A DNA stretch of 64,000 nucleotides from a virus. Below the pieces are notes generated by a model. That model ran no database searches, was not told where the DNA came from, and was given only the letters and a program-made list of their open reading frames with translations. Position numbers and translations under genes: made by a program. Each line of letters opens with the position of its first letter. Within the stretch, counting starts at the first letter, position 1. The DNA lies in IMG/VR virus record IMGVR_UViG_2551306471_000001, positions 2,242-66,241 of that record; one strand, given 5' to 3'. Positions 4,021-60,905 of this stretch are shown here, piece after piece.

Positions 4021-4082
4021 GGTGACGGCCGACGAGCTGCGCGAGGCGGATTGGATGGCCCGAGGATAAGCAGGAGGGGCGC

Positions 4083-4394: not shown

Positions 4395-4728
4395 ATTCTG
4401 GCGCCGCGCGGGACCTTTGCCGCCGGGACTTGAAGTTCTCGCCCCTCCCGGTAGGACCCGTGACCCCCACCCCCCTTCCGGGCCTGTTGGACCCCGGGGA
4501 GGGCAGGACGGGGACCGGGGCTGCCCAGCCCCCGAGGGGATCAAGCCTCATGCGTCGCCGCACCCGGCCAACCTCGCGGCCCCCCGTGCAACCGACAATC
4601 CGGATCCCGAACCTTGCCTCACGGCCTCACACGACAAGGCCCCTGGAGGGGGCTGGGCGGGCCTCGATGGGGACGGGGTGAGAGGGGCCGGGACGGGGGA
4701 CGGGCCTGCCTGGCGGGCTCCCAGGGTC

Positions 4729-5061
4729 TCAGACGGCAGGCGGTGCCAACCGGTTGGAGAGGGCCTGGTGCACGGCCTCGCGCTGCAGCGGGACGCCCCT
4801 GTTCGTGCGCCCGCGCAGGTGCCCCAGGGCGCGCCTGAGGATGTCGTCGAGCCGCACGGAGGGGCGGAGCGCGCCATGCCCCGACGTGCCCTGCAGGGCA
4901 TCCCGGAGGGCGTCGACGAGGGCGGCGTCGAGAGCCCGCGGATCGGGCGCGCCTGCCTCCCTGCGGGCGGCTCGCTCGGCGCGCTTGCGGTCGCGGTCGG
5001 CCTCGCGCCGGGCACGGGCGGAAACGGTGGGGGGATGGGGCATGGCAGGGGAGAGCATCAT
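4729..5061 (-). CDS. Hypothetical protein, paralogue of 22373-22783
   Basis: Shared RKRAERAARREAGAPDPRALDAALV / RKREERARRREAGIPDPRTVDAAII. Confidence 0.7.
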   Translation of the reverse strand: MMLSPAMPHPPTVSARARREADRDRKRAERAARREAGAPDPRALDAALVDALRDALQGTSGHGALRPSVRLDDILRRALGHLRGRTNRGVPLQREAVHQALSNRLAPPAV

Positions 5062-5207
5062 GGCCCCCGGATCTTGCCTACGGCCTTGGCAAGGCACCAT
5101 GCCCCCCTGAAACGACAACGCCCGCCGCGGGGTCACCGGGCGGGCGAAGGTCTGGTCGACAGTGTGGTGCAAAGTAGACCCGAGCAGAGATCTCTCGATC
5201 CCAGGAC

Positions 5208-7229
5208 TCAATGTAGACGGGCCTCGGGCGAGGAACAAGGCAGGTAGCGGTAGGGGTCTATACCGACCTTGGCGAGGCGGGCGAGTGCCTTGGGCCGGTT
5301 CAGGGGCTTGAGGCCGCCGGGGAAGAGCTTGCGCCCCTCTCCGACCTCCTCGTTGAACATGTACTGGGCGTACTCAATGTCCTCCCACTCGCAGCCCATG
5401 GGGCCGAAGGAGGCGCCGTTGCGGTTCGAGGCGCGGCACGACCTGGCATGTTCGTACAGGGCGAGAAGGCGCGACAGGGGGCCGTGCATCAGCCAGGTCG
5501 GGGTCTGGGGCTGTGACGCGGCCTGGGCCTTGCGGCGTCTGGGGCGGGCCTCAGGGGCCTTGGCGGCGGGGGCGGACGGTGCGAGGGTCTCGGGCGGGGC
5601 GGGGTGGGCAGGGCTGGCGTAGCCACCCTTTAGATTACGTGCCGTTTCTGAGACACCCTCCGAGACGGTCTCCTCCGACGGGACGGGCTCGCCCACCGCC
5701 TCGGCCGGGTGGGCATCGAGGGCGCGGTAGACCGTCGCGCGCGAGCAGTCGAGCAGGCGGGCGACCTCGGTCAGGGGCAGGTCCGTCGCCCCTTGGATCT
5801 CGCGGGCCAGCCTGGCGACCTCGGCGAGGGTCTGGGCGTGTTCGGCGCGGGCCGTGGCCCCCTCGCGCTGGCGCCGGGCCGCGGACCGCTCGGTGGCCGT
5901 GCGGACGGGCGCGTCGGGGCGGAGCAGGGTCAGGCCGAGTTCGTCGCACAGGTCGGAGGGCAGGTTCAGGTCGGACCGGACCTTGTCCAGCTTCGGGGTG
6001 TAGAGCGGGCTGTAGGCCCTGCCCTGGTGCATCCGCACCTCGCCGGCCTCGTGGGCACGCAGGCGCTTGGCGACCGACCCGAGGTAGGACCGGAGGGTCT
6101 CCTGCGTGAGGCCGTTGCCGACGACGTAGGGGCCGAACTCCATCGCCCAGGAATCTGCGTCGCCCCCAACGCCGGTCCGCGCCCGGGCGACGGCGACGTG
6201 GAAGCAGAGCAGGTCGCGCTTCTCCAGCCGGGCGAGACGCTCGGGACCGATGGCCAGGACGCGGAGGAGCTCGGCCTCGACGGCGCCCCACAGCCCGCGG
6301 GAATGCGTGCGCAGGCGCGACGGCGCGACCGGCTTGCCCTCGGCCCGGGCCTGCGCCTCGCGGGCGGCCCGGCGCGCGTCGCGCTCCTCGCGGTACAGCG
6401 TGGTCTCGGCGCGGGTGAACGGGAACACAGCGTCCGCGAGCGTGTCGAGGTCGTGGCGCTGCACGTCCTCCCAGCTCTCGGGCCACAGGAGGCGGACGCG
6501 CTCGCCGCTCTTCTCGTTCGTGCTGCCGGCGACGCGGTGGACGCGGGCCATGTCGCCGACGGACCAGTCGAGGTCCATGCCGGCCCAGATGGCGGCGTTG
6601 GCGGCGGCCTTGGCCTTCACGCGCTCGATGTTGGCAGCGCCGGTCTGGACGGCCTCGCCCCACAGGCAGCAGATGAGGCGGCGCACGCGGGCCTGGACGC
6701 GGGCCTTGAGGGGGCGGCGGGACAGCCACACGCACCACAGGCCGCGGCCCGAGAACAGGATGTAGGAGGGCCGCGGGATCCCGGCGGCATCCATGCGGGC
6801 GAGCAGGATGCCGGCGATCTCATGGGGCGGCATCCCGTGGAAGGGCGAGCCCGAGGAGATCTCGCAGTCCGCCCACATCAAGGCATTCACGCGCGCGAGG
6901 GCGTGGGCGCCGCGGCTCTCGTAGTGGCGCTGGAGAGAGATGTGGGAGGCGGCGTGCGCGGCCGGGTCCTTGACGAGCTCGCGCGTGCGGAGATGAACGC
7001 CCTCGGCGAACTTGCTGTCGACGATGACCGTGGCGTTGCCGCGGGCGTGGGGGGCGTGGAGGGTGCGGAGGTGGGCGAGCTTGGCCTGGAGGGCGGTGCG
7101 CTCCTCCTGCTCGCACAGCAGCGTCTCGACGTCGGGCCGGTCCATGAGGACGGACGGGGCCGGCGGGACGGCGTAGGGCTGGCGAGGGGGGAGTGGCATC
7201 GGGCTCTGCTGGGCGTCGCAGGGCACCAC
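5208..7229 (-). CDS. Replication protein, RepB/AEP-type DNA primase with C-terminal HTH
   Basis: ADCE, YILFSGRGLWCVWL and DMARVHRVAGSTNEKSG motifs; HTH LPLTEVARLLDCSRATVYRAL; paralogue of 48998-51241. Confidence 0.75.
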   Translation of the reverse strand: MVPCDAQQSPMPLPPRQPYAVPPAPSVLMDRPDVETLLCEQEERTALQAKLAHLRTLHAPHARGNATVIVDSKFAEGVHLRTRELVKDPAAHAASHISLQRHYESRGAHALARVNALMWADCEISSGSPFHGMPPHEIAGILLARMDAAGIPRPSYILFSGRGLWCVWLSRRPLKARVQARVRRLICCLWGEAVQTGAANIERVKAKAAANAAIWAGMDLDWSVGDMARVHRVAGSTNEKSGERVRLLWPESWEDVQRHDLDTLADAVFPFTRAETTLYREERDARRAAREAQARAEGKPVAPSRLRTHSRGLWGAVEAELLRVLAIGPERLARLEKRDLLCFHVAVARARTGVGGDADSWAMEFGPYVVGNGLTQETLRSYLGSVAKRLRAHEAGEVRMHQGRAYSPLYTPKLDKVRSDLNLPSDLCDELGLTLLRPDAPVRTATERSAARRQREGATARAEHAQTLAEVARLAREIQGATDLPLTEVARLLDCSRATVYRALDAHPAEAVGEPVPSEETVSEGVSETARNLKGGYASPAHPAPPETLAPSAPAAKAPEARPRRRKAQAASQPQTPTWLMHGPLSRLLALYEHARSCRASNRNGASFGPMGCEWEDIEYAQYMFNEEVGEGRKLFPGGLKPLNRPKALARLAKVGIDPYRYLPCSSPEARLH

Positions 7230-7763
7230 ACCCGCGAACCTGCACAGTGTGGGTCGCGTCGCGTCCTTTCACAAGCGTGGCGGTTCGGTCCCGAGGGTCC
7301 GAGGTTAACGCCCCGAAACCTTCCCGCGCGAGACCCTCAAACACGCCCCGCCAGGCCGCGTGGGTCGCCGCCACGCCATGCCGCGCGCACCGGCCGGTAG
7401 GGGAAGGACCGGCGATGCGATCCTGACCCCCTGACGGGCATCCAGGAGCCTCGAAAAAATCTTGGGCAATCCCTCGCGGCACCGCAGCACGGCCGGCGGT
7501 TGCCGGTTGCATGCGGCACTGAGTGGGGGATCACCCCCATTGAAATCATGTTGTTTTTTGGCGGTGTGTGGCTCTGGCACCGCTGGGCCGCCCACCTCCG
7601 CGTGGAGGAGCGCGAGGCCGAGCGCGCCAGGATCCAGGGTGAGCTCCGCCTCGGCTACCCGCGTCAGTAAAGAGAACCGAACACCAGTTAGCTACGCAGC
7701 GGCCCGGGGATAACTCTCCCGGGCCGCTTGCGTTTGGGCGAGGCCGTCCCAGGCTCATTAACC

Positions 7764-8444
7764 ATGGATCCGAACGCCCAACTCGCCCTCGTCATCGTTG
7801 CCGGCCTCCTCGCCTTCGCAGGGCTTTTCCGCCCCGAGGTCAGGAAGAAACTCGGCGACCTGCGAGCCCTCACGTTCCCGGGAGGCTCCGCTGACCTGAC
7901 CGGCGGCGAGGCGGCCGCCCAGATCGAGGCGCAGCGGCACGCCCCCGAGGCCGAGAAGCTGCCCGTTCCATCACCGGAGCCCGGCGAGAGACTCCCGGAG
8001 CTCCCGCCCCCCAGCCCCGTCTACGGACCGCTGGAGGCCGAGTTGCGCCACCGCATCGAGACCGTCGTGCCCGGCGGTGTGGACGTTCAGATGGCATGGG
8101 CCGTCCGGATCGCGGTGGCGGCGCAGGTCGAGCGCGATCACGAGCAGACTTATAGGTTAATATTCGGGAGTCAGATAACGGCCTTGAAAGAGTTGAACGT
8201 CCGAGGGCCCATAACAGTCGCGCAGGCCAAAGAGATCTATGCCCTCACCGCCGTGCGCAACAATCCTGATATATTCAAGCCTGAGACCTTCGAGGCGTGG
8301 GGCGATTACTTGCTCACGCGTGGGCTTGTGGCCGTTGAACGCCAGCCCGTCGACGATGATACTCGGGCCGCGCTTACACCGTTGGGGAAAGATTTCTTGA
8401 TGTTCCTGACCGGGCGCGGCCTGAGCGAGCACAAGTGGGGATGA
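7764..8444 (+). CDS. Membrane-anchored hypothetical protein (moron-like)
   Basis: N-terminal TM helix (AQLALVIVAGLLAFAGLF), soluble C-terminal domain; standalone orientation. Confidence 0.7.
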   Translation: MDPNAQLALVIVAGLLAFAGLFRPEVRKKLGDLRALTFPGGSADLTGGEAAAQIEAQRHAPEAEKLPVPSPEPGERLPELPPPSPVYGPLEAELRHRIETVVPGGVDVQMAWAVRIAVAAQVERDHEQTYRLIFGSQITALKELNVRGPITVAQAKEIYALTAVRNNPDIFKPETFEAWGDYLLTRGLVAVERQPVDDDTRAALTPLGKDFLMFLTGRGLSEHKWG

Positions 8445-8502
8445 GGTCGGACTAAGCGAGCGCTTAGTTCTGCCGTCCCGCCCCCGGAAACGAAACGATC
8501 GC

Positions 8503-8868
8503 TTAGTCGCCCGTCCCGAGGTCGGCGGTCCCCGAGGCGCATGCCTTCGTGTTGGCGGCGAGCTCGCCGTTCGGGAACAGAACCAGACGGCCGAGGCGCC
8601 CGACGTCGACCATCACCATCCCCATGGACAGCACCGCGACGCCTCGCGCCGTGCGCGCCGACCACCGCCCCGTCCGGGTGTCACGGATCTCGCACCGTAC
8701 CCGCACGCGCCACTCGCCCGGCGCCGCTCGCTTAAAATCCAGCCCCGTCGTCACGTTGAGGGGGCCGCGGCGCTCGACCGTCCCAGCGGACCACAGGGCC
8801 TGATCCATGACGCCGGCGCTTGCCGGAGCGGCCGCCACGAGGGCGACCACGAGACTGATGGCGCGCAT
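8503..8868 (-). CDS. Secreted small protein, paralogue of 57428-57853
   Basis: Signal peptide; WRVRVRC.I.D.RTGR motif; ends DLGTGD. Confidence 0.7.
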   Translation of the reverse strand: MRAISLVVALVAAAPASAGVMDQALWSAGTVERRGPLNVTTGLDFKRAAPGEWRVRVRCEIRDTRTGRWSARTARGVAVLSMGMVMVDVGRLGRLVLFPNGELAANTKACASGTADLGTGD

Positions 8869-8870
8869 GC

Positions 8871-9692
8871 TCAGATCTCCACCACGAGGGCCGGATCCCA
8901 GCCCGGGTTCTCGATCTCCTGCGAGGGCGCCCGGTGGCGGGATCCCGCGCTCTCGGTGACGTAGCCGCGGGGGTTCGCGACGATCCGCGTGCCGCCGACG
9001 ACGTAGTCACGGCACTCGTGGATGTGGCCGTGGATCCAGAGCGCCGGCGCGTGCGATCCCTCCAGGATGGCGCTCAGGTCGGAGGCGTAGGCCGCGTCGA
9101 GAGGCGTCCGCCAGCCGCCGCCGCGCAGGCTCCGCTCGTGCGGGGCGTGGTGCGTGACGACGACGGTCGGACCCGCGTACGGCTCCGCCAGCGCGGTCTC
9201 GATGCGGCGGCGCTGCTCGCGATGCAGGCTCCCGGAGACGCGCGGCAGGAACGCGCTGTAGTCCCGCGGCCCGCGCCGCCACTTGATCCGCCGGACGTCG
9301 CGCATCCCGCCTGCCCGAACCGCCCCCTCAGACGTTGCGCGGGCCCGCTCCTCGGGTCGCAGGTCCCAATCCGTCCAGAGGGTCGCGCCGACGAACCGGA
9401 CCCCAGCGAGCACGACCGTCTCGCCCTCGACGAGCAGGTGGATCCCGGCGGCGGCCGCCAGTTCGCGCGCCTCGGCGACCTCGCGCTGGTACGTGCAGCG
9501 CCAGAAATCGTGGTTGCCGGGCACGTAGACGACGGGCCCCGGGAAACGATCCCGCAGCCACGGCAGGACGCGGTCGCAGAGCTTCTCGGACACGTCCCCG
9601 GCGATGACCGCGACGTCGTGCGGCGGCGGGTCGAGATCGAGTGGGCAGACGTCGAGATGCAGGTCCGAGAGGACCCATAGGCGCGCGGTCAT
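8871..9692 (-). CDS. Calcineurin-like metallophosphoesterase
   Basis: SDLH, AGD, PGNHD, THH and GHIH motifs. Confidence 0.9.
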   Translation of the reverse strand: MTARLWVLSDLHLDVCPLDLDPPPHDVAVIAGDVSEKLCDRVLPWLRDRFPGPVVYVPGNHDFWRCTYQREVAEARELAAAAGIHLLVEGETVVLAGVRFVGATLWTDWDLRPEERARATSEGAVRAGGMRDVRRIKWRRGPRDYSAFLPRVSGSLHREQRRRIETALAEPYAGPTVVVTHHAPHERSLRGGGWRTPLDAAYASDLSAILEGSHAPALWIHGHIHECRDYVVGGTRIVANPRGYVTESAGSRHRAPSQEIENPGWDPALVVEI

Positions 9693-9714
9693 GGCGGGAA
9701 TCCTCCGGCCGGCG

Positions 9715-10056
9715 CTAGAGGAGCGCCCAGGCCGTTCCGTTGCTTGTGAATACGATCAGTCTACAGGCCAATACTTGATGAAACCCTGGGCGCACCGTGA
9801 AAACCTCGGCGTGCCAGGGGCTGTAGCCGACCTCGACGGCGCCCTCGGGGACGCCGGCGAAATCGGTGCGGCTGCCTCGCGCGACCGCATGGACCGACCG
9901 GACGCCGGTGCGCAGGCACGCCGCCCGGCCGCCGGGCTGCACCACCAGCCGCACGTCCCGCAGCGCGATCTCGGGGACGTGCGCGACGACGCGGCCGCCC
10001 TCGCGCACCGACCAGCAGCCGCCCGCGCGCCGGAGGTTGCGGTAGACGTCAGTCAT
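9715..10056 (-). CDS. Conserved phage hypothetical protein, paralogue of 57866-58201
   Basis: YRNL...WSVR..G.VVAHVP.IAL.D.R...VHA motif. Confidence 0.7.
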   Translation of the reverse strand: MTDVYRNLRRAGGCWSVREGGRVVAHVPEIALRDVRLVVQPGGRAACLRTGVRSVHAVARGSRTDFAGVPEGAVEVGYSPWHAEVFTVRPGFHQVLACRLIVFTSNGTAWALL

Positions 10057-10279
10057 CGAGGGGCGGCACGGGCAGGGGCGCGAACGCCATCGCCACGTTC
10101 TCCGCCTCCGCGGCGACGGCGGCCGCCTCGGCCGGGGACAGCATGCCGGCCCGGACGAGCCTGCCGGCGCGCAGGACGCGGGCGCGGAGCCCCCTGCCGG
10201 AGAGCGGGCAGATGCGCCCGCTCTCCCACGCCGCCTTGATCCGCGCGGCCGCCGCGGCGACGGGATCACCGGGGCTCAC
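10049..10279 (-). CDS. Small hypothetical protein, paralogue of 58198-58413
   Basis: AAWESGRIC...AEAENVAMAFAPLP vs TAWTSRRVC...REAEAVALCFSPLP. Confidence 0.65.
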   Translation of the reverse strand: MSPGDPVAAAAARIKAAWESGRICPLSGRGLRARVLRAGRLVRAGMLSPAEAAAVAAEAENVAMAFAPLPVPPLDD

Positions 10280-10496
10280 GGCGCGCCTCCTGCAGGTGCG
10301 GGAGGCCGAGGGCCCCGTTGAAGGCCTTGTTCGCCGCCACCAGGGCCTCGGGCCCGGTGATGGCGCGCTGGTCCGCGAGGCGGATGACGTGGAGCATGTA
10401 GGCCTCCATGCCCTGCGCCGCCTCGGGGTGGACGGTACCCGCGGCACGGTGGGCGCGGAGGGTCGACAGCAGGTAGTCGAGGACGGGAGCGTGCAT
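10266..10496 (-). CDS. Small hypothetical protein, positional equivalent of 58403-58603
   Basis: MHAPVLDYLLSTLRAH...; RBS-like GGAGG upstream. Confidence 0.6.
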   Translation of the reverse strand: MHAPVLDYLLSTLRAHRAAGTVHPEAAQGMEAYMLHVIRLADQRAITGPEALVAANKAFNGALGLPHLQEARREPR

Positions 10497-10510
10497 GTCC
10501 TGTCCTCCCG

Positions 10511-12124
10511 TCAATGCCGCGGACCATGGGCGCGGCTGTCGAGGCAGACCGCGACGCATGCCGTGAGCTCCCGGAGAGAACCGCCGCGCCAAAATGCCCG
10601 CAGGCTCTCCATCTCGGCCGCGTCGAGGACGGCCTCGGACGGGTGCATGCCCCGCTCGCGGCAGAGCGCCTCCGCTATCTGAGGCGCGAGGGCAGCGAGG
10701 TGCTCCCGGCCGGGACGCGGCACGTGGATGATGCGGCAGCGGTCCCGGAGCGGGCCGGCGACGCGCGCGAGCTCGTTCGCCGTGATGACGTACGAGACGG
10801 GCGACAGGTCGACCTCGCACTCCAGGTAGACGTCGTATAGCCGGCGCGCTGAGGTCGATTCGAGGTACGGCAGCAGCGTCGAAACGAGGCTTCCGTTGTG
10901 GTCCCCCGTCGCCGCCTTGTCCCCCTCGTCAATCACCACGAGCACGTTGGCGCGCCCCACCCGCCGGATGGCCTGCAGCGGGACGCTCGCGCGGCCCGTG
11001 TGGTAGGCCCGGGACGTGCCGCCGAACATCCCGTCCGCCACTCCGCCCGCGCCATAGAGCGTCGACGGCAGGCCCAGGATCTCGCCGAGCGCGAGCGCGG
11101 CGGACGTCTTCCCGGAGCCGGGCGGCCCGACGAGCAGCAGCGGCCGGACGCGGGCGTAGGGCGCCCCGACGAGATCGCCGGCGACGGCGTCGGCGAGGGC
11201 CGGTGCCCACGGCACGCGCCGCAGTAGGGCGGCGTGGACGGCCTGCGGGTCCGGCGCCGGCGTGACGGGCAGGACACGGTCGGCGACGTCACGGAACTCC
11301 GCCCGCGGGCCCGCCCGCGTGTCCGCGAGGTGCGTCAACGGCCCCGCCACCCGGACGCCGGCCGGGGGCGCCGCCTCGGCCTCTCCCAGGTCGAGGGGGT
11401 CGAAATCGGGGTCGCGCGGGTCCGCGCCCGTGTCGTCGCGGACCGGGCCCCTCCGGACCGCGCCCCGGAGGGCGGAGCGGCTCTCGCCCCGGTCTAGCGC
11501 CGCCCAGAACCGCGTGACCTCGGCCTCGGCGAGGAGCTCCTGGCCCGCTCGCTCGCGCAGGACGGCGCGGTGGACGGGCTGCTGGGGATCGTGCGTGCCG
11601 AGCAGGTTCTGATGCGCCACGTACGAGAGCTCGGTGCGCGTAAGCATCAGAGCCCATCGCTCGCAGTCGTCGAACGAGCCGCCCAGCGAGACGTCGGCCT
11701 CGTGCATTGCCCGCACGGCGCAGTCATAGTCACCGAGCCACGCGGCACTCAGCCGGCAGCGCGAGGCATGCTCCCGGCAGTCCTCGCGCACCGCCTTCGT
11801 GAGCCGGGTGTCGGCGGCGGCCTCGGCGAACGCCTCTGCCAGCGCGGCGGCGAGGGGCGCGGTGACGGTGCCCTCGTCGAGCGCGGCCAGGGCGTCGCGC
11901 AGGCCGCGGGGGAGCCCGTCCCGCCGGAGCGAGCGCGACCACGCCAGGAGGTCGGCCCCGGGGTGATTCCAGTACAGGGGCCAGCCGTCTAGGAGCTGGC
12001 GGAGGGTGGCGGGGAAGGTGACGGTGTCGGGGGGCGTGGACGCGTCGCGCTGCGCCCGGGCGCGCTGAGCGCGCCGGATCTCGTCGGTCATCGGATCCCT
12101 TTCCGGAGACGCCCCGTGTATCAC
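10511..12124 (-). CDS. Lon-like AAA+ ATPase without protease domain
   Basis: Walker A GPPGSGKT, Walker B VVIDEGDK, YDVYLECEVDLSPVSYVITAN and PLRDR (Lon AAA signature). Confidence 0.85.
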   Translation of the reverse strand: MIHGASPERDPMTDEIRRAQRARAQRDASTPPDTVTFPATLRQLLDGWPLYWNHPGADLLAWSRSLRRDGLPRGLRDALAALDEGTVTAPLAAALAEAFAEAAADTRLTKAVREDCREHASRCRLSAAWLGDYDCAVRAMHEADVSLGGSFDDCERWALMLTRTELSYVAHQNLLGTHDPQQPVHRAVLRERAGQELLAEAEVTRFWAALDRGESRSALRGAVRRGPVRDDTGADPRDPDFDPLDLGEAEAAPPAGVRVAGPLTHLADTRAGPRAEFRDVADRVLPVTPAPDPQAVHAALLRRVPWAPALADAVAGDLVGAPYARVRPLLLVGPPGSGKTSAALALGEILGLPSTLYGAGGVADGMFGGTSRAYHTGRASVPLQAIRRVGRANVLVVIDEGDKAATGDHNGSLVSTLLPYLESTSARRLYDVYLECEVDLSPVSYVITANELARVAGPLRDRCRIIHVPRPGREHLAALAPQIAEALCRERGMHPSEAVLDAAEMESLRAFWRGGSLRELTACVAVCLDSRAHGPRH

Positions 12125-12199
12125 CGCGGGCGTGCTATGAGGTCCTGCTCGCCGGCTTAGGCCGCACGTGACAGGCCCCCTTGGATACCGCGCGACTCG

Positions 12200-12799
12200 T
12201 TAAGATTTTGTCTCTAGCCCGAGGCGGATACGTCGAGCCAGGTCGGTCTCCTCGCGGATCTCCTCGACGAGGCCCTGGGCCGCGCGCAGGACGCCATGGA
12301 GCCGGCGGTCGAGGTCCTCGCGGTCGCTGTGCGAGAGCACGCCGGACCGGTGGTGCTCCTCATCGTCGCTGCCCATCTCGTCCCATACCGTTGCGACGGC
12401 GAGCAACTGGTACCCGACGGCGCGGGGGTGGTCGACGTACGCGGCGGACCCGAGCAGCTTCAAGACGGGCGTGGGCAGACCGAACTTGATGATCCGGTCG
12501 CGCTGGGCCGTGCGCTGCCCGAGCCGCGTCACGGCGACGAGGGGCGCGACCCACAGGTCGCCCCACAGCCTATTCGCCGCCGCCACGACCGCCCGCAACA
12601 GTGCCTCGGCGAGCACGGCATGCTCGACCGGCCGGCCGTCGACATAGGCCTGCCTGCCCTCGTACGAGAGGACCGCGCCCATCGTGGGGACGCGGCGGGT
12701 GAGCTTCGCCAGGCCGACCGACCCCACGCGGCCGACCGGTGTCCCTGGGATCCGGGGATCCTCGGGGACGGGGCAGAGCAGGATCTCCTCGATGTCCAT
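12200..12799 (-). CDS. HTH-like hypothetical protein, paralogue of 60330-60905
   Basis: AAANRLWGDLW...RDRIIKFGLP.PVL..LG.AA..HPRAVG matches 60330-60905. Confidence 0.7.
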   Translation of the reverse strand: MDIEEILLCPVPEDPRIPGTPVGRVGSVGLAKLTRRVPTMGAVLSYEGRQAYVDGRPVEHAVLAEALLRAVVAAANRLWGDLWVAPLVAVTRLGQRTAQRDRIIKFGLPTPVLKLLGSAAYVDHPRAVGYQLLAVATVWDEMGSDDEEHHRSGVLSHSDREDLDRRLHGVLRAAQGLVEEIREETDLARRIRLGLETKS

Positions 12800-12845
12800 C
12801 AGACCGTCCAGAGCGTAAAGTAGTGGACCACCACGAGGAGGCGGC

Positions 12846-12974
12846 CATGGTTAACACGGTCGCCGACGCCGGAGGCCGAATGGTTCGTATACGCGACATC
12901 GCGGGGATGGGGCGGTCCGGATGTCGCGTATAGAGGCCACTCTCGGAATCGCATGGTTAACGCGGTCGCCGACG
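12846..12974. promoter_or_regulatory. Divergent control region with 23-nt direct repeats flanking a 13-bp inverted repeat
   Basis: CATGGTTAAC(A/G)CGGTCGCCGACG at 12846 and 12952; TATACGCGACATC (12888-12900) / GATGTCGCGTATA (12920-12932). Confidence 0.7.
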
Positions 12975-13127
12975 TCGGCCGCCGGGCAACTCATATAGCT
13001 AGGGTCGGGCGCCCTAGGCCCCCGGATAACTCATTTACGAGTTCATCCAGACCCCTCACCGCCGTCAACATGGTTACCGCAACCGGCGGCAGGACCCCTG
13101 TTCCCGGCCCGCGCCGAGGGTAGCCTG

Positions 13128-13415
13128 ATGGGCATGAAGAAGGCGCATCCCATCCGCTGCCGGGCGCTCGCCGCCCGCCGTGCCCGTCCCTACGACCCGT
13201 TCATCGACGGCGACATCCGCCCGAGGATCCCGGGGCTGCCCAGCTTCGAGCCGCTCGAACTCGTCGCGCTGCCAGCCGGGGAGGCCGCCACGCCGCCGGC
13301 GTCCGGGATGCAGTTCGACGCCGAGGGCAACCCGACCGCCTACGTCATCCCATTGGATCCGCCGGCCCGCACCCGCGACGCCGACCTTCCCGCCGTGGGG
13401 TCCTTCCATGGCTGA
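13128..13415 (+). CDS. Hypothetical protein
   Basis: ORF track; overlaps next start. Confidence 0.5.
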   Translation: MGMKKAHPIRCRALAARRARPYDPFIDGDIRPRIPGLPSFEPLELVALPAGEAATPPASGMQFDAEGNPTAYVIPLDPPARTRDADLPAVGSFHG

Positions 13416-13770
13416 GATGACCTACGAGGAGTGCATCCGCGCCACCATGGCCCGCATGTGCGCCTCCCTCGACCTCTCCTGCGAGGAGGTGATGGCCGAG
13501 CGCGACCGTGACAAGCGCGAGCGCCTGCGGCGGATCTGGCGGGAGATGCAGGACCTCGCGAGCACGAGGGCGGCCGCCCTGTCGCCAGGCGCGGTGACCT
13601 ACTCGGTGGGCAGCACGGACAAGAAGCTAGCCCGCGAGCTGGCGCGCCGGCTCGACAGCGGCCGCCCGTTCACCCCGCGTCAGTGCCAGGTCGCCGCCTA
13701 CCTGGCATGGCGCTACCGCCGCCAGATCTCGGGGCGCATCGTTCCGGGCGGCCCAGTCGCGAAGCCGTAG
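13408..13770 (+). CDS. Hypothetical protein with ...RYRRQI tail shared with 20031-20972
   Basis: MAEMTYEECIR...DKKLARELA...QVAAYLAWRYRRQI. Confidence 0.65.
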   Translation: MAEMTYEECIRATMARMCASLDLSCEEVMAERDRDKRERLRRIWREMQDLASTRAAALSPGAVTYSVGSTDKKLARELARRLDSGRPFTPRQCQVAAYLAWRYRRQISGRIVPGGPVAKP

Positions 13771-13782
13771 GGGCCGCAACGC

Positions 13783-14082
13783 ATGAAGACCTCGATGTAC
13801 GACTTCTTCCTCTCGCGCGCCGACGGCGCCCACATCGCGGCGTGGCAGATCGGGGATCGGACGGTCTCGGAGGATGAGGCCCGGCGCCGGCTCTCCATCA
13901 TCGAGCTCTCGTCGGAGGACTGGGTGAACCCGGAGGGGGGCGAGCCGGGGGACCGTGACGACCTCGACATGGAGACATTCGGCGCGCAGGCTTGGACCGC
14001 CGAGCGGGTGCTCTTCACCATCGGCACATACGAGGGCGGCATGTGGGTCTACGGCGCTCCGCGCCATCCCCGGACACGGTGA
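13783..14082 (+). CDS. Hypothetical phage protein
   Basis: 99 aa with normal composition. Confidence 0.6.
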   Translation: MKTSMYDFFLSRADGAHIAAWQIGDRTVSEDEARRRLSIIELSSEDWVNPEGGEPGDRDDLDMETFGAQAWTAERVLFTIGTYEGGMWVYGAPRHPRTR

Positions 14083-14401
14083 CCTGACGGGCCCAAGCGG
14101 TTACGAATCGCTCGGCTTGAGAGACCCTGGCCGCGCGGTTCCCGTGCACGGCGGCCGCGCCCCGGCCGGGGGGCTTGCCGCGGCATGAGAGGGGTCCCCG
14201 GCGCGAACCGGGGCCCCTTCTGATTTCACACGAGCGAGGGAATGCCGGGGCCGGACGGGGGAATTCATCCGAGCGTCTGAACCTCGGGCGGCCGCCCCAC
14301 CGGTGTAGCGCGTCCCCGCCCAAACCCCGCCCAAGGCCCGGAAACGACAAAGGCGCCCCGGGGGCGCCTTGCGGAAAAACGTTTATTCTGTGGGGGTTAT
14401 T

Positions 14402-14451
14402 TGGTGGGCGCACTAGGGTTCGAACCTAGGACCCGCTGATTAAGAGTCAGC
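14402..14451 (-). tRNA. 3' fragment of tRNA-Lys(CTT), att core; not an intact tRNA
   Basis: Minus strand GCTGA-CTCTTAA-TCAGC-GGGTC-CTAGG-TTCGAAC-CCTAG-TGCGCCC-ACCA; D-arm and 5' acceptor strand absent. Confidence 0.92.
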
Positions 14452-14613: not shown

Positions 14614-16116
14614 ATGCCCCGCCTCGACCTGAACCTGAGCCACGTCCGGGACGCCAAGAAGGACGCCAAGCCCGGCGCCAAGGCCTATGACATCATCGAC
14701 ACCCGGGCACGCGGGCTCCTGCTCCGCGTCGGGCCCCGGGGATGCCGCTGGGCCTGGAAATTCGAGTTCGACCACCGCACCCGCCGCATGGACCTCGGCG
14801 ACGTGGACGAGTGGAGCATCGAGGACGCACGCACCGTGGCCGGCGAGGCGACGAAGCTCATCCGCGAGCGCCGCGGCCTGCCGGACGCCGCGTGGCTCGC
14901 CGCGCAGCGCGCCCGCTTCGGGAAGGCACCGCCGCCGGACGGGACCGTCGGGCTGCCACAACCGTTCAAGGCGTCGCCTGAGCCCAAGCCCTGGCAGGCC
15001 ATCCCCGACTTCCTCGCGTGGACCTACAGGGACGCCGTCGAGCGCTACCTCAAGCACGTCGCCGAGACGAAGCGGGTCGGGACGCTCAGGGACTACCGGA
15101 AGACGCTCAATCACCCGGCCTTCGACGAGCTCAAGCGCCTGCCCGTCTCCCGCATCACCGTCGACACGATGCAGAAGATCGTCGACGGCGTCGCGAAGGC
15201 CGGCCATCACACCAGCGCGGTCGGCATGACCGTGAAGGTGAAGACCTTCTGGAAGTGGCTGGCACGCCCGGGCGTCCGCGAGGGCTCGATGATCACGACC
15301 GAGGTCATGGCGCCGTTGCACAAGCCGGACCGCATCCGCCAGGTCGCCGCCCCCGGCGCGGCGCCCGCGCCGTCGAAAAAGAAGCGGCACTTCCCGCTCA
15401 TGCCCGAGCTCGGGCGCCTCGTCGCCCTGGCCCGGACGGGGGCGTTCGAGCCAGCCTACGACGTCGCCATCTTGCTGCTCGTCCTGGCGGCTCAGCGCAA
15501 CCATGCTGTCTGCTCGGCCGCGCGAGACGATTTCCAGGACTGCGACGAGGAGCCAGGCTGGGGCGTGTGGCGCATCCCGCCGCTGCACCGAAAGGGCGCC
15601 TCCGAGGAGGACGAGCAGGAGGAGCGGACGCACGCCGTCCCTCTGCCGCCCGCCGTGTGGGCCGTCGTGAAGGCGCGCCTCGCGACCCTGCCCGGGCAGC
15701 ACTGGCTGTTCCCCGGCATGCGTCCGCGGAAGAGGGGCGCTCCGGTCGGGCACATGAGCGAGAGCACCCTGACGCACCATTTCGACGCCATGCCCGGCAT
15801 CGTGGCGAGCCCGCACGACCTGCGCCGGGCGCTCCGGAGCCAGGGGCGCAAGCTGCTGCGGGTGACCCCGAAGGAGCTCTCGTTGATCCTCGACCATGCC
15901 GAGGGCAAGGCCGGGTCGGTGACGGAGGCGCACTACAGCGACGACGAGCAACTCGACGTCAAGCGTCCGATCCTGGAGCGCTGGTGGGAGATGGTCGAGA
16001 AGCACGCCGGCGCCGCGGCGCCGGACCTGCCGTCGGTCGAGGAGATCCGCGCCCACGTCAGTCGAGAGAAGCAGCGCCAGAAGGGCCGCGTCCAGGCTGA
16101 GGCCGAGGCAGCCTGA
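14614..16116 (+). CDS. int: Tyrosine recombinase/phage integrase with N-terminal arm-binding domain
   Basis: N-terminal GLLLRVGPRG..W pattern; catalytic R (AAQRN), HDLRR, H (LDHA) and Y (EAHY). Confidence 0.93.
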   Translation: MPRLDLNLSHVRDAKKDAKPGAKAYDIIDTRARGLLLRVGPRGCRWAWKFEFDHRTRRMDLGDVDEWSIEDARTVAGEATKLIRERRGLPDAAWLAAQRARFGKAPPPDGTVGLPQPFKASPEPKPWQAIPDFLAWTYRDAVERYLKHVAETKRVGTLRDYRKTLNHPAFDELKRLPVSRITVDTMQKIVDGVAKAGHHTSAVGMTVKVKTFWKWLARPGVREGSMITTEVMAPLHKPDRIRQVAAPGAAPAPSKKKRHFPLMPELGRLVALARTGAFEPAYDVAILLLVLAAQRNHAVCSAARDDFQDCDEEPGWGVWRIPPLHRKGASEEDEQEERTHAVPLPPAVWAVVKARLATLPGQHWLFPGMRPRKRGAPVGHMSESTLTHHFDAMPGIVASPHDLRRALRSQGRKLLRVTPKELSLILDHAEGKAGSVTEAHYSDDEQLDVKRPILERWWEMVEKHAGAAAPDLPSVEEIRAHVSREKQRQKGRVQAEAEAA

Positions 16117-16321: not shown

Positions 16322-16891
16322 ATGAAGACCCAATCCAACACCTTCTTCACCGCCGACCACCACTTCGGGCATGAGGGCGTCATCCGCATGTGCGGGCGCC
16401 CCTTCACCGACGCCCGCGAGATGGACGAGGCCCTGGTGCACGCCTGGAACGCCCGCGTCCGCCCCGGCGACACCGTGTGGTTCCTCGGCGACTTCGCCAT
16501 GGGCTCCAGCCCGGACCGGTGCCGGGAGCTCTTCGCCCGCCTGAACGGCACCAAGCACCTCGTGCGGGGCAACCACGACCGGCAGCGCGTCCTCGACCTG
16601 CCGTGGGCGTCCCAGCACGACCTCGTACAGACGACCGTCGACGGCGTCCGCCTAGTCCTCTGCCACTACGCCATGCGGTCGTGGCCCGGCGTCTGGCGCG
16701 GGTCGATCCATCTCTACGGGCACACCCACGCCACCCTGCCGCCGACCACGCAGTCCTGCGACGTGGGCGTCGACGCGTGGGCGTACCGGCCGGTGACGCT
16801 CGCCGAGATCCGGGAGCGCCTCGCCGGCGTCGAGGAGGAGCCCGAGGAGAAGCGCCGGGCCCGCGAGCGGGACGAAGAGGGCGACGCGTAA
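16322..16891 (+). CDS. Phage metallophosphoesterase
   Basis: DHHFGH, LGDF, GNHD, CHY and GHTH motifs. Confidence 0.9.
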   Translation: MKTQSNTFFTADHHFGHEGVIRMCGRPFTDAREMDEALVHAWNARVRPGDTVWFLGDFAMGSSPDRCRELFARLNGTKHLVRGNHDRQRVLDLPWASQHDLVQTTVDGVRLVLCHYAMRSWPGVWRGSIHLYGHTHATLPPTTQSCDVGVDAWAYRPVTLAEIRERLAGVEEEPEEKRRARERDEEGDA

Positions 16892-56843: not shown

Positions 56844-57431
56844 ATGAGAGGGAGGCCCGACGTGGCCGAGGCAGAGAACATCAACATCGTCGACGTCGAG
56901 GAATACATCGCCACGGCCGTCGCCCGGGAGCGCCGGGCCGACGAGAAGAGCGCCTTCCGGGAGCGGCACGCCGCCGCCGAGGCCGCCCTGAGGGCCAGGC
57001 GCGCCGAGGTCGAGGAGCGGGCCGCCCTGCGCCGGGCCGCCGGAAATCCGGCGGATGCCGCGGGCGGCAACGGAGGGCCCGGGCTCGAACTCCCGCCGTC
57101 CTACGACGCGCTGGAGCGCATCGGACGCGTCGTCTACGGCGACCACTGGGAGGGGAAGCTGGCGGCGGACATCGGGGAGCAGGATCGCACGATCCGGCGC
57201 TGGCGCGCGGGCGAGGCAGCGACGACGCCCGAGGCTATGGCCGCGGCGCGGCTGTGGGCCATCGAGGCCGCCGCGGGGCTCCTCGCCGCGGCGGGCGAGG
57301 AGGATCTCGCCGGCGAGGTGCGGGCCCGGGAGCAGTCCATGCGCCTCCGGAACGCCGAGCGCGCCGCCGCCCGGCACGCGGCCAACGTCGCGAAGGCCAA
57401 GGCCGCGGCAGCCGCGAAGGCCGGGACCTAG
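56844..57431 (+). CDS. XRE-like HTH protein with coiled coils
   Basis: IGRVVYGDHWEGKLAADIGEQDRTIRRWRAG. Confidence 0.65.
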   Translation: MRGRPDVAEAENINIVDVEEYIATAVARERRADEKSAFRERHAAAEAALRARRAEVEERAALRRAAGNPADAAGGNGGPGLELPPSYDALERIGRVVYGDHWEGKLAADIGEQDRTIRRWRAGEAATTPEAMAAARLWAIEAAAGLLAAAGEEDLAGEVRAREQSMRLRNAERAAARHAANVAKAKAAAAAKAGT

Positions 57432-57853
57432 TCGCCCGAGGAGAGGTCCCCAACGCCGCGCCGGGGGCACTCCGCGATGCCGTCCATCTCGCCGTAGAGC
57501 GCCAGGTTCTCGGGGGCCGCGGCGTCCTGGGACACGATGAAAGAGCCGCACCGCCCGTCGGGCAGGTCCCACCGCCCGCCGAATCCGGGCATCCGCGCGC
57601 GGGTGCTCGTGCCGGTGCCCACGACGCGGCTGACGACGCGCCCGGTGCGGGGATCCTCGAACCCGCACTCGACGCGGACCCGCCACGTGGACCGCCCGGC
57701 GGGCTCGGCGTCGACGTAGCCGTACCGCCGGAGGCCTCCCGGAGCCGGCTCCGTGACGGCCCAGCGCCACCCGCTGTCGAAGCCCGGCCAGAGCTCTGTC
57801 GCGAGCGCCGGGGCAGGAATGGCGACCAGCGCGACAAGGATCAGCGTTCGCAT
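57428..57853 (-). CDS. Secreted small protein, paralogue of 8503-8868
   Basis: Signal peptide; WRVRVECGFEDPRTGR; ends DLSSGD. Confidence 0.7.
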   Translation of the reverse strand: MRTLILVALVAIPAPALATELWPGFDSGWRWAVTEPAPGGLRRYGYVDAEPAGRSTWRVRVECGFEDPRTGRVVSRVVGTGTSTRARMPGFGGRWDLPDGRCGSFIVSQDAAAPENLALYGEMDGIAECPRRGVGDLSSGD

Positions 57854-57865
57854 TCTGAGTGTCCT

Positions 57866-58201
57866 TCAGGAGGGATTGAGGGCCCACGCCGAGCCGTCCG
57901 CTTCAAGCCAGACGGCCTCGGCGCGGGAGATGACGGCGCCCGTGTCCCGGCGCCGGAAGCCGGGCTCGCTCAGGCGGTACCCGATGCGGACGGCGGGCCG
58001 CGGGCGCGGCCTTTCGAGGGGCGTCCCCGCCACCCAGGCATGGGCGTCCCGGGTGCCCGACCGCAGGCACCGGAGGCGGGACGCCTCCGAAGCCCGGAAC
58101 CGGCAGTCTGACAGGGCCAGGGCGGGCACGTGGGCGACGACGAGGCCGCGCACGCGGACCGACCAGCACCGCCTGACGCGGTTGTAGTAGGCCTGCGTCA
58201 G
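57866..58201 (-). CDS. Conserved phage hypothetical protein, paralogue of 9715-10056
   Basis: YYNRVRRCWSVRVRGLVVAHVPALALSD; start codon uncertain (CTG at the equivalent position). Confidence 0.65.
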   Translation of the reverse strand: MTQAYYNRVRRCWSVRVRGLVVAHVPALALSDCRFRASEASRLRCLRSGTRDAHAWVAGTPLERPRPRPAVRIGYRLSEPGFRRRDTGAVISRAEAVWLEADGSAWALNPS

Positions 58202-58413
58202 AGCGTCGGGAGCGGCGAGAAGCACAGCGCGACCGCCTCCGCCTCGCGGGCCATCCGGATGGCGTCCGTCCGGCTGATGCGCCCCGCGGCGTCGAGGGCG
58301 ATGACGCGCTCGATGCGGATCATCGCGGCGATGCCGACGAGGCCGCAGACACGCCGGGACGTCCACGCGGTGCGGACGCCGTCGCGGATGGCGTGGAGAT
58401 CCTCAGGCTGCAT
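58198..58413 (-). CDS. Small hypothetical protein, paralogue of 10049-10279
   Basis: Shared motifs with 10049-10279. Confidence 0.65.
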   Translation of the reverse strand: MQPEDLHAIRDGVRTAWTSRRVCGLVGIAAMIRIERVIALDAAGRISRTDAIRMAREAEAVALCFSPLPTL

Positions 58414-58614: not shown

Positions 58615-60258
58615 TCAGTTGGCCAGCTTCGGATCGGACCGGAGCGCGACGAGGCGTTCGATGGCCCGGCGCAGCGGTCGCATCGAGCCCCCCTGCCAGC
58701 CCTGCAGCGCCCGGAGCTCGGACGCATCCAGATCGGGCGTCCAGGCCGGGTCCAGACCGCCCTCCCGGCGCATCGCCCGGAGGATGCCGCGGGCGACGAC
58801 GGGGAGGTCCTGGCGCCGCGGGGCGGGCCACTGGATGACCGTGAACCGGTCGAGGAGCGGCCCCCGCAGCGGCTCCGTGCCGTTCGCCGTCGCCAGGAAA
58901 CTCACGCCCGAAAGGTCGCAGGCAGCCTCCAGCGCCGGGTCGTGATAGGCGTGCCGCCGCGTCGGTTCGATCATCGCGAGAATGGCCGAATGGTGCGACC
59001 CGTTGTGGTCCGAGCGGGCGCACTTATCGAGCTCGTCGTGGATCGAGCATACGGTCATGCAGCGTTCGGCCAGGATCTGCTGGGCGGCGCCGTTCAGCCG
59101 GGTAGTCGACCAAGCCCGGGACGTGCCACCCCACTGCCCATCTGCCAGCCCCCCGCACGGTACGACCGTCGTCGGCAGGCCGAGCATTTCGGCGATGGCG
59201 ACCGCAGCCTCGGTCTTGCCTGTGCCCTGCGCTCCGACGAGCAGGTACGGGGGCAGCACGACGCGGTCCCGGCCGACGAGCGGCGAGAGCATGCGGGCGA
59301 TCTCGGCGGTGGCCCAGGGCATGCCCTCGGCGAGCCGCTCGCGGACCTCGGCGAGGTCGGGAACGGGGACCGACCGGAGGGGCTGTGTGGCCGTCAGCCT
59401 GTAGTCCTTGAGGGGGCCGCCCTTGAGATGATCCAGGCTGCCGGACACGAGCGGGCGAAGCGCCGGGCCGGCCGTCGGCGCCGAGGTGTCCGGGGCCGCG
59501 GGGGCGATACTCTTCGCCAGCTTCGCCGAGGGCCGCAGCGGCTTGCGACGCAGGGGGCCAGGACGCTCCAGGTCCATGAAGTCGAAGTCGTCGTGCGGGA
59601 GGTCCTGGCCGATGTCGTCGACGATGGCCGCGGTCGCGGCCTCGTGGAGCAGCACGACCTCGGTCGCCATCGACAGGCGCTGCCGGGCGATGAGCCGGGA
59701 CGGCAGCCGCGGGATCGGGCCGTAGTCGTCGGGCTCGTCCGCGCCGCGCCCGTCCGTCGCGACGTGCAGCGCCTCCGTGAGCGTCACCCAGAGCTCGTAG
59801 TGCACGAGGGAGCTGTGGTTGCCGGCGAGCAGCAGCGCGAACGCCTTCCGGACGGCCATCCGGGCGCCGACGCGGTCGCCCGCGATCATCAGGAGCACCG
59901 CCGCGTGGTCGCGCCACTGCTGGTGCGCCATCCGGGCGGCGGGCCACTCGGCCTCGTCCCGGGCGACGGCGTCGCAGGCGCAGGCGAGCCGGCGGAGGCG
60001 CTGCAGGCTGGGCTCCCGGCGGACGCCCTCCAGCGCCTCCCGGACCTCGTGCCTGAGCGGGTGGTTCCGCGGCGCCGCGAGGGCCGCCTCGGCCGCCGCG
60101 GCGGCCTGATCCAGGACGTCGCCGGGCTCGGCGCCCTGGTAGAGCTCGTCGAGGGTCAGGACGTGGTCGTGGGGGCGTGTTTGGGCTGCCCGGTCTGCGG
60201 CGAGGATCTCGGCGCGCATCTCCGCGACAGCCGCCTCGAAAGGCTGCTTGGTCATCAT
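58615..60258 (-). CDS. Lon-like AAA+ ATPase without protease domain
   Basis: GAQGTGKT, IHDELDK, YHDPALEAACDLSGVSFLATAN and PLLDRF motifs. Confidence 0.85.
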   Translation of the reverse strand: MMTKQPFEAAVAEMRAEILAADRAAQTRPHDHVLTLDELYQGAEPGDVLDQAAAAAEAALAAPRNHPLRHEVREALEGVRREPSLQRLRRLACACDAVARDEAEWPAARMAHQQWRDHAAVLLMIAGDRVGARMAVRKAFALLLAGNHSSLVHYELWVTLTEALHVATDGRGADEPDDYGPIPRLPSRLIARQRLSMATEVVLLHEAATAAIVDDIGQDLPHDDFDFMDLERPGPLRRKPLRPSAKLAKSIAPAAPDTSAPTAGPALRPLVSGSLDHLKGGPLKDYRLTATQPLRSVPVPDLAEVRERLAEGMPWATAEIARMLSPLVGRDRVVLPPYLLVGAQGTGKTEAAVAIAEMLGLPTTVVPCGGLADGQWGGTSRAWSTTRLNGAAQQILAERCMTVCSIHDELDKCARSDHNGSHHSAILAMIEPTRRHAYHDPALEAACDLSGVSFLATANGTEPLRGPLLDRFTVIQWPAPRRQDLPVVARGILRAMRREGGLDPAWTPDLDASELRALQGWQGGSMRPLRRAIERLVALRSDPKLAN

Positions 60259-60329: not shown

Positions 60330-60905
60330 TTACTCGTCGGTTAAAGGAGGGCGCCAGCTATCCTGGTATAGGCGCTCGTTCTCGGCGGCCTCCCGCCGGG
60401 CCCGGAACGTCTCGCGCTCGGCCATGACCTCGTCGAGGACGAAGAGGGCCCGGCGGTACGTCGCGGCCGTCGCCAGGTTCCGTTCGACGATGTCGACGGC
60501 GGCCGGCCGGCCGGACGCGTGCGAGGCGGTCGTGTGGGCCTCCTGGAGCTCCACGACGCACATCAGGGCGTGTCCGAGGGCGCGCGGGTGGGCGTGCGCC
60601 GCGGCCTGTCCGAGGAACGCCAGGACGTAGTCGGGCAGCCCGTGCTTCGCGATGCGGTCCCGGGACGTCGAGCGCCGGTTGAGCTGCATGAGGCGCGCGA
60701 GGCCATTGATCCACTCGTGCCCCAGGACGCGGGTCGCGGCGTCGTCAACGGCCTCGACAAGGTCCTGGGCGACCTCGGCCTGCGTGAGCACCCGGCCGCC
60801 GGCGTGGTACTCGCGCCCGATCAGCGTGATGGGGTCCCCGTCGTATGTGCCGATGGTGGTGCCCTTGGGGGCCTGGGGCATGGGAGTGAGGACGAGGCGG
60901 GGCAT
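60330..60905 (-). CDS. HTH-like hypothetical protein, paralogue of 12200-12799
   Basis: Shared motifs with 12200-12799. Confidence 0.7.
   Translation of the reverse strand: MPRLVLTPMPQAPKGTTIGTYDGDPITLIGREYHAGGRVLTQAEVAQDLVEAVDDAATRVLGHEWINGLARLMQLNRRSTSRDRIAKHGLPDYVLAFLGQAAAHAHPRALGHALMCVVELQEAHTTASHASGRPAAVDIVERNLATAATYRRALFVLDEVMAERETFRARREAAENERLYQDSWRPPLTDE

Follow-up and report, generated by a model that had tools for sequence, protein, structure and literature searches.

A recurrent operon of alphaproteobacterial mobile elements built around a protease-less Lon-type ATPase and variable partner genes

We analysed a stretch of 64,000 nucleotides (nt; hereafter the window), which is positions 2,242 to 66,241 of the 69,435-base provirus record IMGVR_UViG_2551306471_000001 of IMG/VR. 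Its G+C content is approximately 72% and its nearest genome match was Methylobacterium dankookense. The window carries two diverged copies of a gene string, one on either of two adjacent mobile elements: A-B-C-D-E-M-F in the left copy and A-B-C-D-E-F in the right copy (suffixes 1 and 2, respectively), in which B encodes a Lon-type AAA+ ATPase without a protease domain, E a beta-rich protein of the family PF25735, and M a calcineurin-like metallophosphoesterase. Comparison with related loci indicates that this operon type is real, ancient and recurrent; its stable core appears to be B with the PF25735 protein and/or the phosphoesterase, the other genes being exchangeable. Tentatively, we favour the reading that it is a mosaic accessory or early operon of alphaproteobacterial temperate phages and mobile elements, which would serve counter-defence or host takeover. 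A preliminary description of the window, made from its letters alone, had suggested a remodelling, anti-defence or exclusion role, and the comparative evidence appears compatible with such a role.

The ATPase B and its relation to Lon

The label "Lon-like AAA+" given to B at the outset was confirmed and narrowed, as B contains a complete LonA-type AAA+ module and the protease domain was not found. B1 matched the Pfam family PF00004 (8.7e-9), and a phmmer search retrieved approximately 30 Lon structures, aligned over residues 328–527, approximately the span of the module, with E values of 1e-14 to 1e-20. Against LonA of B. subtilis (3m6a) and Meiothermus (4ypl), approximately 200 residues of B aligned end to end over the alpha/beta and lid subdomains with an E value of 1e-20. 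B was in register with 3m6a and 8k3y at Walker A (GPPGSGKT), Walker B (DEGDK) and sensor-1 (TAN), and with Lon also at the arginine finger (GPLRDR), sensor-2 and the pore-loop-1 tyrosine (RAY in B, RTY in Lon). The positions of the ATPase motifs were invariant in 16 members of the B family, and the aromatic residue of the pore loop was always W or Y.

Outside this module, the likeness to Lon ends. LonA has a C-terminal Ser-Lys protease and a LAN/PUA-like N-terminal domain, whereas B has neither and carries instead an unannotated, fast-evolving N-terminal half of approximately 300 residues. B gave no match to PF05362, the C-terminal Lon protease with the Ser-Lys dyad, in the Pfam search and terminates approximately 10 residues past the lid; residues 1–320 gave no match to PF02190 (LAN) or any other Pfam family, and an atlas feature search with residues 1–300 yielded nothing usable. 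The model TIGR00763 (lon) scored 77 bits against a cut-off of 608, and only its positions 356–497, the AAA+ segment, were aligned. The approximately 300 aa ahead of the module are variable: the ratio of nonsynonymous to synonymous substitution rates (dN/dS) was 0.38 for the N-terminal half and 0.16 for the ATPase, and the mean column conservation was 0.35 and 0.6, respectively. Lacking two of the three defining features of LonA, namely the protease and LAN domains, B is by its sequence a Lon derivative and not Lon. The host's own Lon was a separate match (L010); Lon is a housekeeping gene, whereas B is encoded on mobile elements. An unfoldase ring that works as a remodeller with no peptidase attached is an established mode, as with ClpX in Mu transposition. 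ClpX is a host enzyme borrowed by the phage, whereas B is a Lon-derived motor encoded by the element itself.

A profile search of 1.84 billion representative proteins yielded at least 150 B-family clusters (50% identity) at E<1e-106, nearly all of 500–570 aa and aligned across almost the whole profile; the 3,042 matches at E<1e-30, which probably contain true Lon proteases, were left uncounted. The named members carried only the names "AAA family ATPase" or "hypothetical". Long members of the family were considered as Rosetta-stone N-terminal fusions and rejected: only AAA was found in them in Pfam, and they are probably over-long calls of open reading frames (ORFs). It is also unlikely, at approximately 32% identity and without the Lon N-domain, that B is a decoy poisoning the host Lon. 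In the M. dankookense locus L006, the B1 orthologue (98.5% identical) has a 1-nt deletion near its 3' end, at the equivalent of window position ~10599. The deletion yields a fused 682-codon ORF across the downstream small genes and reflects either a true frameshift or an error of the draft assembly.

Recurrence of the operon and exchange of its genes

B followed by E within approximately 1.5 kb was found in ten further loci, namely on Logan/JGI/ENA contigs (L003, L004, L042, L043, L045 and L051), in all three copies of M. dankookense (L006, L029 and L030) and in another genome (L031). The related-locus search, run with single proteins or a tighter alignment, gave only one genome locus and three weak viral contigs. 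The common gene order was (A)-B-small gene(s)-E-(M)-secreted protein, and L004 and L042 had the arrangement of the right copy, including its convergent antirepressor and lysis genes. The genome sample of relatives was centred on the M. dankookense genome. Approximately 14 of the 201 species genomes of the same family had a relative of B, and PF25735 occurred at seven places in these genomes, four of them immediately downstream of B; chance alone would almost never produce such adjacency. In a class-wide sample, B was present in 9 of 400 genomes. Clustering of the neighbours of 33 B loci, which were picked by similarity, gave M as a partner in 13, E in 11, a DUF6634-like domain in approximately 12, A in 7 and a zinc-ribbon protein in 6. 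M accompanied B in the orders M-B, B-M or B-x-E-M, and the Microvirga plasmid pR24_2 carries the two genes as a bare pair. M had at first been noted as an extra gene of the left copy; it is confined to that copy within the window, but is the commonest partner of B across the loci. The DUF6634-like domain formed a downstream protein of 115–150 aa or the C-terminus of a 360–400-aa protein just upstream of B (L004:5905-6270, L030, L033, L035, L038–L041 and L059). It occurred in neither copy of the window, and no mention of DUF6634 was found in the literature.

E1 and E2 matched PF25735 (Phage_L5_gp82) with 64.2 and 52.6 bits, respectively (cut-off 27), covering positions 9–117 of 120. The predicted structure of E1 was a beta-rich domain with a predicted local distance difference test (pLDDT) score of 94. 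When this model was compared with the PDB, neither Foldseek (best E about 1) nor an exhaustive VIA-align search (best Z 2.5) gave a match, and the relatives in AlphaFold DB were uncharacterised proteins only; judging from the model, the fold of PF25735 may be one that has yet to be solved. In the viral structure library BFVD, the fold of E was seen inside phage proteins of 766–1403 aa (template modelling score TM(query) 0.81–0.86, E 1e-4 to 3e-6), which also bear ART-PolyVal, zeta-toxin, PcfJ-like, LT_GEWL (lytic transglycosylase) or tail-lysozyme domains. The match of E1 to positions 537–603 of phrog_2774 (1263 positions) agrees with the fold being one domain of giant phage proteins. The giant, injected polyvalent proteins (PMC5512222) thus share the predicted fold of E as one of their domains, whereas E1 is a free-standing 113-aa operon product. 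Polyvalent proteins were argued to arrive with the invading DNA, and the uncharacterised LPD domains, which also occur solo near phage or type IV secretion system (T4SS) genes, to be likely helpers in the early phase of invasion (Iyer et al. 2017, PMC5512222); that paper mentions neither the B family nor metallophosphoesterases. Homologues of E were present in virulent and temperate phages, including cluster C and A mycobacteriophages and Salinibacter, Roseobacter and Myxococcus phages. In the cultured phages their neighbours are small early genes, and neither an ATPase nor a phosphoesterase is close by.

M1 matched the Pfam families PF00149 (32.3 bits, cut-off 21.5) and PF12850 (31.1 bits, cut-off 27) as well as phrog_1649 (7e-40), and its translation holds all the metal-binding motifs (LSDLHLD, AGDVS, PGNHDF, VTHHAP and HGHIHE). 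A PDB sequence search found no close solved relative and gave one weak match (6unc, E 1.7e-4). Homologues of M were found mainly in large virulent phages, namely those of Rhizobium (T4-like), Caulobacter (jumbo), Brevundimonas, Vibrio and E. coli. In the nin region of phage lambda, the calcineurin-like NinI (lambda phosphatase) lies near the distal end of the early operon among small genes. M is comparable to NinI by its placement and differs from it as a member of phrog_1649, which is found mainly in large virulent phages.

Purifying selection acts on these genes: dN/dS between orthologues was 0.12–0.25 for B, 0.34 for C, 0.61 for D, 0.33 for E, 0.24–0.33 for M and 0.33 for F, values that are probably inflated by the high G+C content at third codon positions. 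The history of the genes around B was uneven. Compared with the window, L006 had A at 100% nt identity, B at 98.5% DNA identity and E, M and F at 83–89%, with the C/D segment swapped for an unrelated one, whose D resembles D2; in L051, B to F were 81–87% identical in protein sequence, and A was 45% identical in aa. B was 85–98% identical where A ranged from 45% (aa, L051) to 100% (nt, L006). These comparisons indicate that recombination has acted on B separately from A, from the C/D segment and from the distal segment. The functional unit of the preliminary description therefore survives in part: co-occurrence extends to ten loci beyond the two copies and orthologue dN/dS lies at 0.12–0.61 rather than near 1, but the six genes do not form a fixed set, since A is exchanged, C/D is variable and the secreted families differ.

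The exchangeable genes A, C, D and F matched nothing in Pfam, PHROGs, NCBIfam or PADLOC. The AlphaFold model of A1 (pLDDT 89) had a small N-terminal beta domain, a helical core (residues 59–143) and a long C-terminal helix (157–198). Its residues 59–133 aligned with helix-turn-helix (HTH) domains of the XRE/Cro type (2ox6, 3fmy, 3f51, 3eus, 2kpj and 2ef8) at Z scores of 5.6–6.3, which is the non-decisive range of the tool, with root-mean-square deviations of 2.4–3.5 Å; Foldseek gave no significant match for the model, and a search of PDB sequences with the A profile was empty. The initial term "HTH-like" is plausible from the model, and A is probably an XRE-type DNA-binding regulator of the operon. 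The 33 homologues of A2 were all hypothetical proteins, mostly of Methylobacterium. Homologues of C1 were seen at the same position in L003, L004, L031, L043 and L051, and one of D1 in L042. Since a hidden Markov model (HMM) of the C family matched D1 (E 1.5e-7), C and D may be old tandem paralogues. In some loci, the place of D, or of C and D, was taken by a 205-aa zinc-ribbon-like protein. This protein, which has no Pfam family, follows B directly or after C in six loci (e.g. L003:2762-3379, L043:9031-9651 and L045:6731-7357) and carries a conserved KEKFGT(L/A)RWY motif and a C-terminal CxxC...CxC..H cluster.

Putative Sec-type signal peptides, a kind defined by a basic n-region, a hydrophobic h-region and an A-x-A cleavage site, were read by eye in F1 (MRAISLVVALVAAAPASA/G) and F2 (MRTLILVALVAIPAPALA/T), and likewise in the positional counterparts of L003, L004, L042 and L043. 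F1 and F2 have two cysteines and the C-terminal G(T/S)GD in common, and homologues of F1 were F2 and the proteins of L004 (141 aa) and L042 (137 aa). Two or more unrelated families supply the terminal secreted protein across the loci. What is conserved in F is chiefly its position, and F is more likely a periplasmic add-on than a part of a machine.

This mosaic structure raises the question of whether the genes share a function at all. They might be unrelated early or moron genes that were co-inherited through recombination at gene boundaries, with B, E, M and F acting singly. The differing histories of A, the C/D segment and the E-M-F segment relative to B would fit this, as would the absence of each partner from some loci and the solitary E homologues of cultured phages. 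Nevertheless, we regard such independence as improbable: B-E adjacency is kept in paralogues that are only 33–50% identical and in three copies of one genome, B-M adjacency recurs in three arrangements as well as in the bare plasmid pair, and overlapping start and stop codons link the genes from B to F.

Possible roles of the operon

B was found in diverse mobile elements. It occurs in prophages with convergent antirepressor and lysis genes, with up to three diverged copies of the module per genome, each in a different element, and one B gene adjoins the T4SS genes of a conjugative Bradyrhizobium plasmid. At the class-wide B places, the neighbours included Tn7-like TnsA/TnsB, a tyrosine integrase, a DUF3987 primase-helicase, DUF3102 and a ClpB-like ATPase; other members adjoin an FtsH-like AAA+/M41 protease or 3'-5' exonucleases. 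In L066 (5021-9131), a distant B-family gene lies directly upstream of TnsA-like and TnsB-like (Mu transposase/rve) genes, and this gene order places it within a Tn7-like transposon or at the border of one. A role that serves the element is favoured because virulent phages commonly carry members of the E and M families and because B is carried on plasmids and transposons; genes kept by virulent phages are likelier to serve the phage than to protect the host. The occurrence of the E fold in polyvalent proteins, which were interpreted as effectors of early invasion (PMC5512222), supports the same direction.

We propose the following mechanism, in which the assembly into a hexamer, the threading of proteins, the work of the adaptors, what M acts on, when the genes are expressed and which side benefits are all inferred. 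The operon would be switched on at entry or induction of the element. B would form a hexamer-type ring and drive, with ATP, the threading, unfolding or dismantling of a protein of the host or of a rival element, the target being picked by the fast-evolving N-terminal half, with the small partners as adaptors or co-effectors. As a second effector, M would hydrolyse a phosphoester, which could be that of a nucleotide signal or a phosphoprotein, or lie at the end of a nucleic acid. A would regulate the operon, and F would be a periplasmic addition. A bolder version has only a small probability in our view: the B family would be a new class of mobile-element unfoldases used as counter-defence weapons. 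The N-domain, with E and C/D as adaptors, would capture immune or silencing proteins of the host, the Lon-derived ring would unravel them but leave them undegraded, and M would destroy alarm nucleotides.

Several observations weigh against a counter-defence or takeover role shared by these genes. Exclusion or defence would be equally consistent with the position in prophages beside immunity genes and with the terminal secreted protein. E stood without B at three of the seven PF25735 places. None of A, C, D, E, F or M was present at the 10 further B places of the class-wide sample, and the linkage therefore holds for part of the B family only. Mosaic exchange of neighbouring genes is also expected of independent early genes. 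The RNA-labelled runs containing the stretch consisted of contigs, and their depth was flat over tens of kb of genomic sequence, so that they carry no information on transcription. Finally, M had a weak candidate match in PADLOC (PDC-S10, 2.5e-10).

Some of these points lead to the opposite direction of benefit, in which the operon is a defence or superinfection-exclusion system: B would sense the invader, M (or, in other versions, nucleases and proteases) would be the effector and F would block periplasmic entry. This is possible, though rather unlikely in our estimation. It would account for the accessory positions in prophages near immunity and antirepressor regions, for the diverged copies in separate elements and for the variable N-domain of B. 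The FtsH-like AAA+/M41 protease, the 3'-5' exonucleases and the ClpB-like ATPase near distant members resemble effectors of conflict systems, and one locus has a LexA/S24-type repressor gene immediately upstream in the same orientation, an order that recalls rexAB behind cI. B also had weak matches to IetA/IteA, alongside the PDC-S10 match of M. The IetAS/IteA anti-phage system, reportedly of the Gao et al. 2020 class, is likewise a small accessory operon of mobile DNA that includes an AAA+ ATPase; its partner genes are different. We rejected membership of B in this system, as the matches cover the P-loop only and fall far below the cut-off: they were limited to the Walker A region and scored 12–20 bits against a cut-off of 510 (12–18 bits for NF042959 of NCBIfam), with PADLOC IetA E values of 1e-4 to 5e-3 over approximately 45 residues. 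The IetS-type subtilase/serine protease partner was not found either, as Pfam detected no protease gene in either copy. Further points against defence are that no gene matched a known defence model of PADLOC at a meaningful score, that members of both the E and the M family occur widely in virulent phages, and that the E fold is part of invasion-type polyvalent proteins.

That no described system has this layout, as first supposed, agreed with our searches of PADLOC, NCBIfam, Pfam and PHROG models and of the literature. Nothing relevant was found in the literature on a Lon-like/phosphoesterase prophage system, L5 gp82 or PDC-S10, and atlas searches added nothing decisive. We also found no description of protease-less Lon-type motors on phages, plasmids and transposon-like elements, a family of at least 150 clusters with recurrent partners. 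A motor that takes host proteins apart on behalf of the element would amount to a new way of counter-defence or host takeover, and one that shields the host to a new defence system. In either case, a function would be assigned to the widespread phage domain PF25735 and to a phosphoesterase family common in large virulent phages. The two diverged, neighbouring copies and their close orthologues in other strains form a natural set of variants for experiments.

The two copies in the window and their surroundings

All twelve ORFs of the preliminary description were open on the minus strand at the coordinates it had assigned, and the metallophosphoesterase was open on that strand too. Two starts were revised. 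The start of B1 is most likely ATG 12091 rather than GTG 12124, because the homologues all begin with MTDE and an identical database protein has 526 aa. For E2, position 58201 is a CTG codon on reading the DNA, and a GTG lies in frame at 58225. The operon is tightly packed: the left copy has junctions of -14 to +22 nt from B to F, and those of the right copy measure -11 (or -28) to +12 nt; A and B are spaced by 71–75 nt in the copies. The stop of F2 overlaps the end of a convergent gene, 56844-57431(+), by 4 nt.

Table 1 Features of the left (1) and right (2) copies in the window
Feature	Positions	Strand	Length (aa)	Remarks
A1	12200..12799	-	199	Probable XRE/Cro-type HTH regulator; AlphaFold model; BLASTP match to A2
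B1	10511..12124	-	537 from GTG 12124; 526 from ATG 12091	Lon-type AAA+ ATPase without protease domain
C1	10266..10496	-	76	Small protein; positional homologues in other loci
D1	10049..10279	-	76	Small protein; possibly distant C paralogue
E1	9715..10056	-	113	Beta-rich PF25735 (Phage_L5_gp82) protein
M1	8871..9692	-	273	Calcineurin-like metallophosphoesterase, phrog_1649 type; left copy only
F1	8503..8868	-	121	Putative Sec-type signal peptide MRAISLVVALVAAAPASA; conserved C-terminal G(T/S)GD
A2	60330..60905	-	191	A1 paralogue
B2	58615..60258	-	547	B1 paralogue
C2	58403..58603	-	66	Counterpart of C1 by position only
D2	58198..58413	-	71	BLASTP match to D1
E2	57866..58225	-		PF25735 protein; probable start GTG 58225
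F2	57428..57853	-	141	Putative signal-peptide protein
Control region upstream of A1	12800..13127	divergent		Three ~33-nt direct repeats

The copies were compared by pairwise BLASTP of the protein pairs. Identities were 30% for A1/A2 (E 1e-22), 33% across 461 aa for B1/B2 (E 1e-57), 42% for D1/D2 (E 3e-14), 36% for E1/E2 (E 2e-19) and 28% for F1/F2 (E 2e-8). C1 and C2 gave no BLASTP match, and the C-family HMM scored C2 only at E 0.0024 in a three-sequence search. Five of the six pairs are thus homologous at 28–42% aa identity and the C pair is not significant, just as the first reading of the sequence had it, with the first small pair alike mainly by position. That reading had also excluded a recent duplication, and the copies are indeed old: synonymous sites between them are saturated (proportion of synonymous differences, pS, 0.45–0.62), and the copy-to-copy dN/dS is therefore unusable. 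The paralogy of the two elements extends past the six genes, as a 673-aa protein, 5208-7229(-), and a 747-aa protein, 48998-51241(+), were 38% identical across 460 aa. This pair had weak matches to phrog_2478 ("DNA polymerase/primase") and to HTH_23 and no significant Pfam match, and a PDB sequence search with the 673-aa protein was empty. The same 673-aa gene stands after the module in L051.

Upstream of A1, direct repeats lie at 12846-12878, 12952-12984 and 13060-13092 with a period of 106–108 nt (CATGGTTAAC...CGCCGACG...), and the same divergent control region contains a perfect 13-nt inverted repeat at 12888-12932. The repeats are probable operator sites. A scan for promoters and terminators gave matches at chance level only.

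The control region and the primase-like pair bear on another explanation, namely that the operon does housekeeping for the life cycle of the element. B would then remodel a nucleoprotein complex of repression, replication or integration, for which ClpX for Mu and DnaK for lambda are precedents; A would be Cro/CII-like, and the rest would be nin-like fillers. The order of HTH protein, ATPase, small genes and phosphoesterase recalls the O-P-nin-NinI order of lambdoid early operons, a primase/polymerase-like protein is common to both elements, and the operon begins at a divergent control region bearing repeated sites. We nonetheless think this explanation quite unlikely. B belongs to the Lon branch with a protein-threading pore loop and lies outside the DnaA/DnaC initiator clade, the operon ends in convergent transcription that does not lead to late genes, and B also occurs on plasmids and transposon-like elements whose replication and integration machinery is wholly different. 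No iteron cluster was found in or beside A. The narrower candidate of a replication initiator with its helicase loader was rejected on the same two grounds, the lack of iterons in or near A and the place of B in the Lon branch.

At the left side of the window, contigs of one other organism matched positions 3000-14430 almost identically and ended there, whereas those of another organism continued, and a 50-nt piece, 14401–14451, was assembled separately in all four of the four runs. These observations place the end of the left element, which has no structural genes, near 14430. No other copy of the junction sequence 14401-14451 was found within the record. The integrase at 14614-16116 is part of the right-hand neighbour and not of the left element. 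Just downstream of this integrase lies a second, unrelated metallophosphoesterase, 16322-16891(+), of 189 aa, which matched phrog_547 (3e-52).

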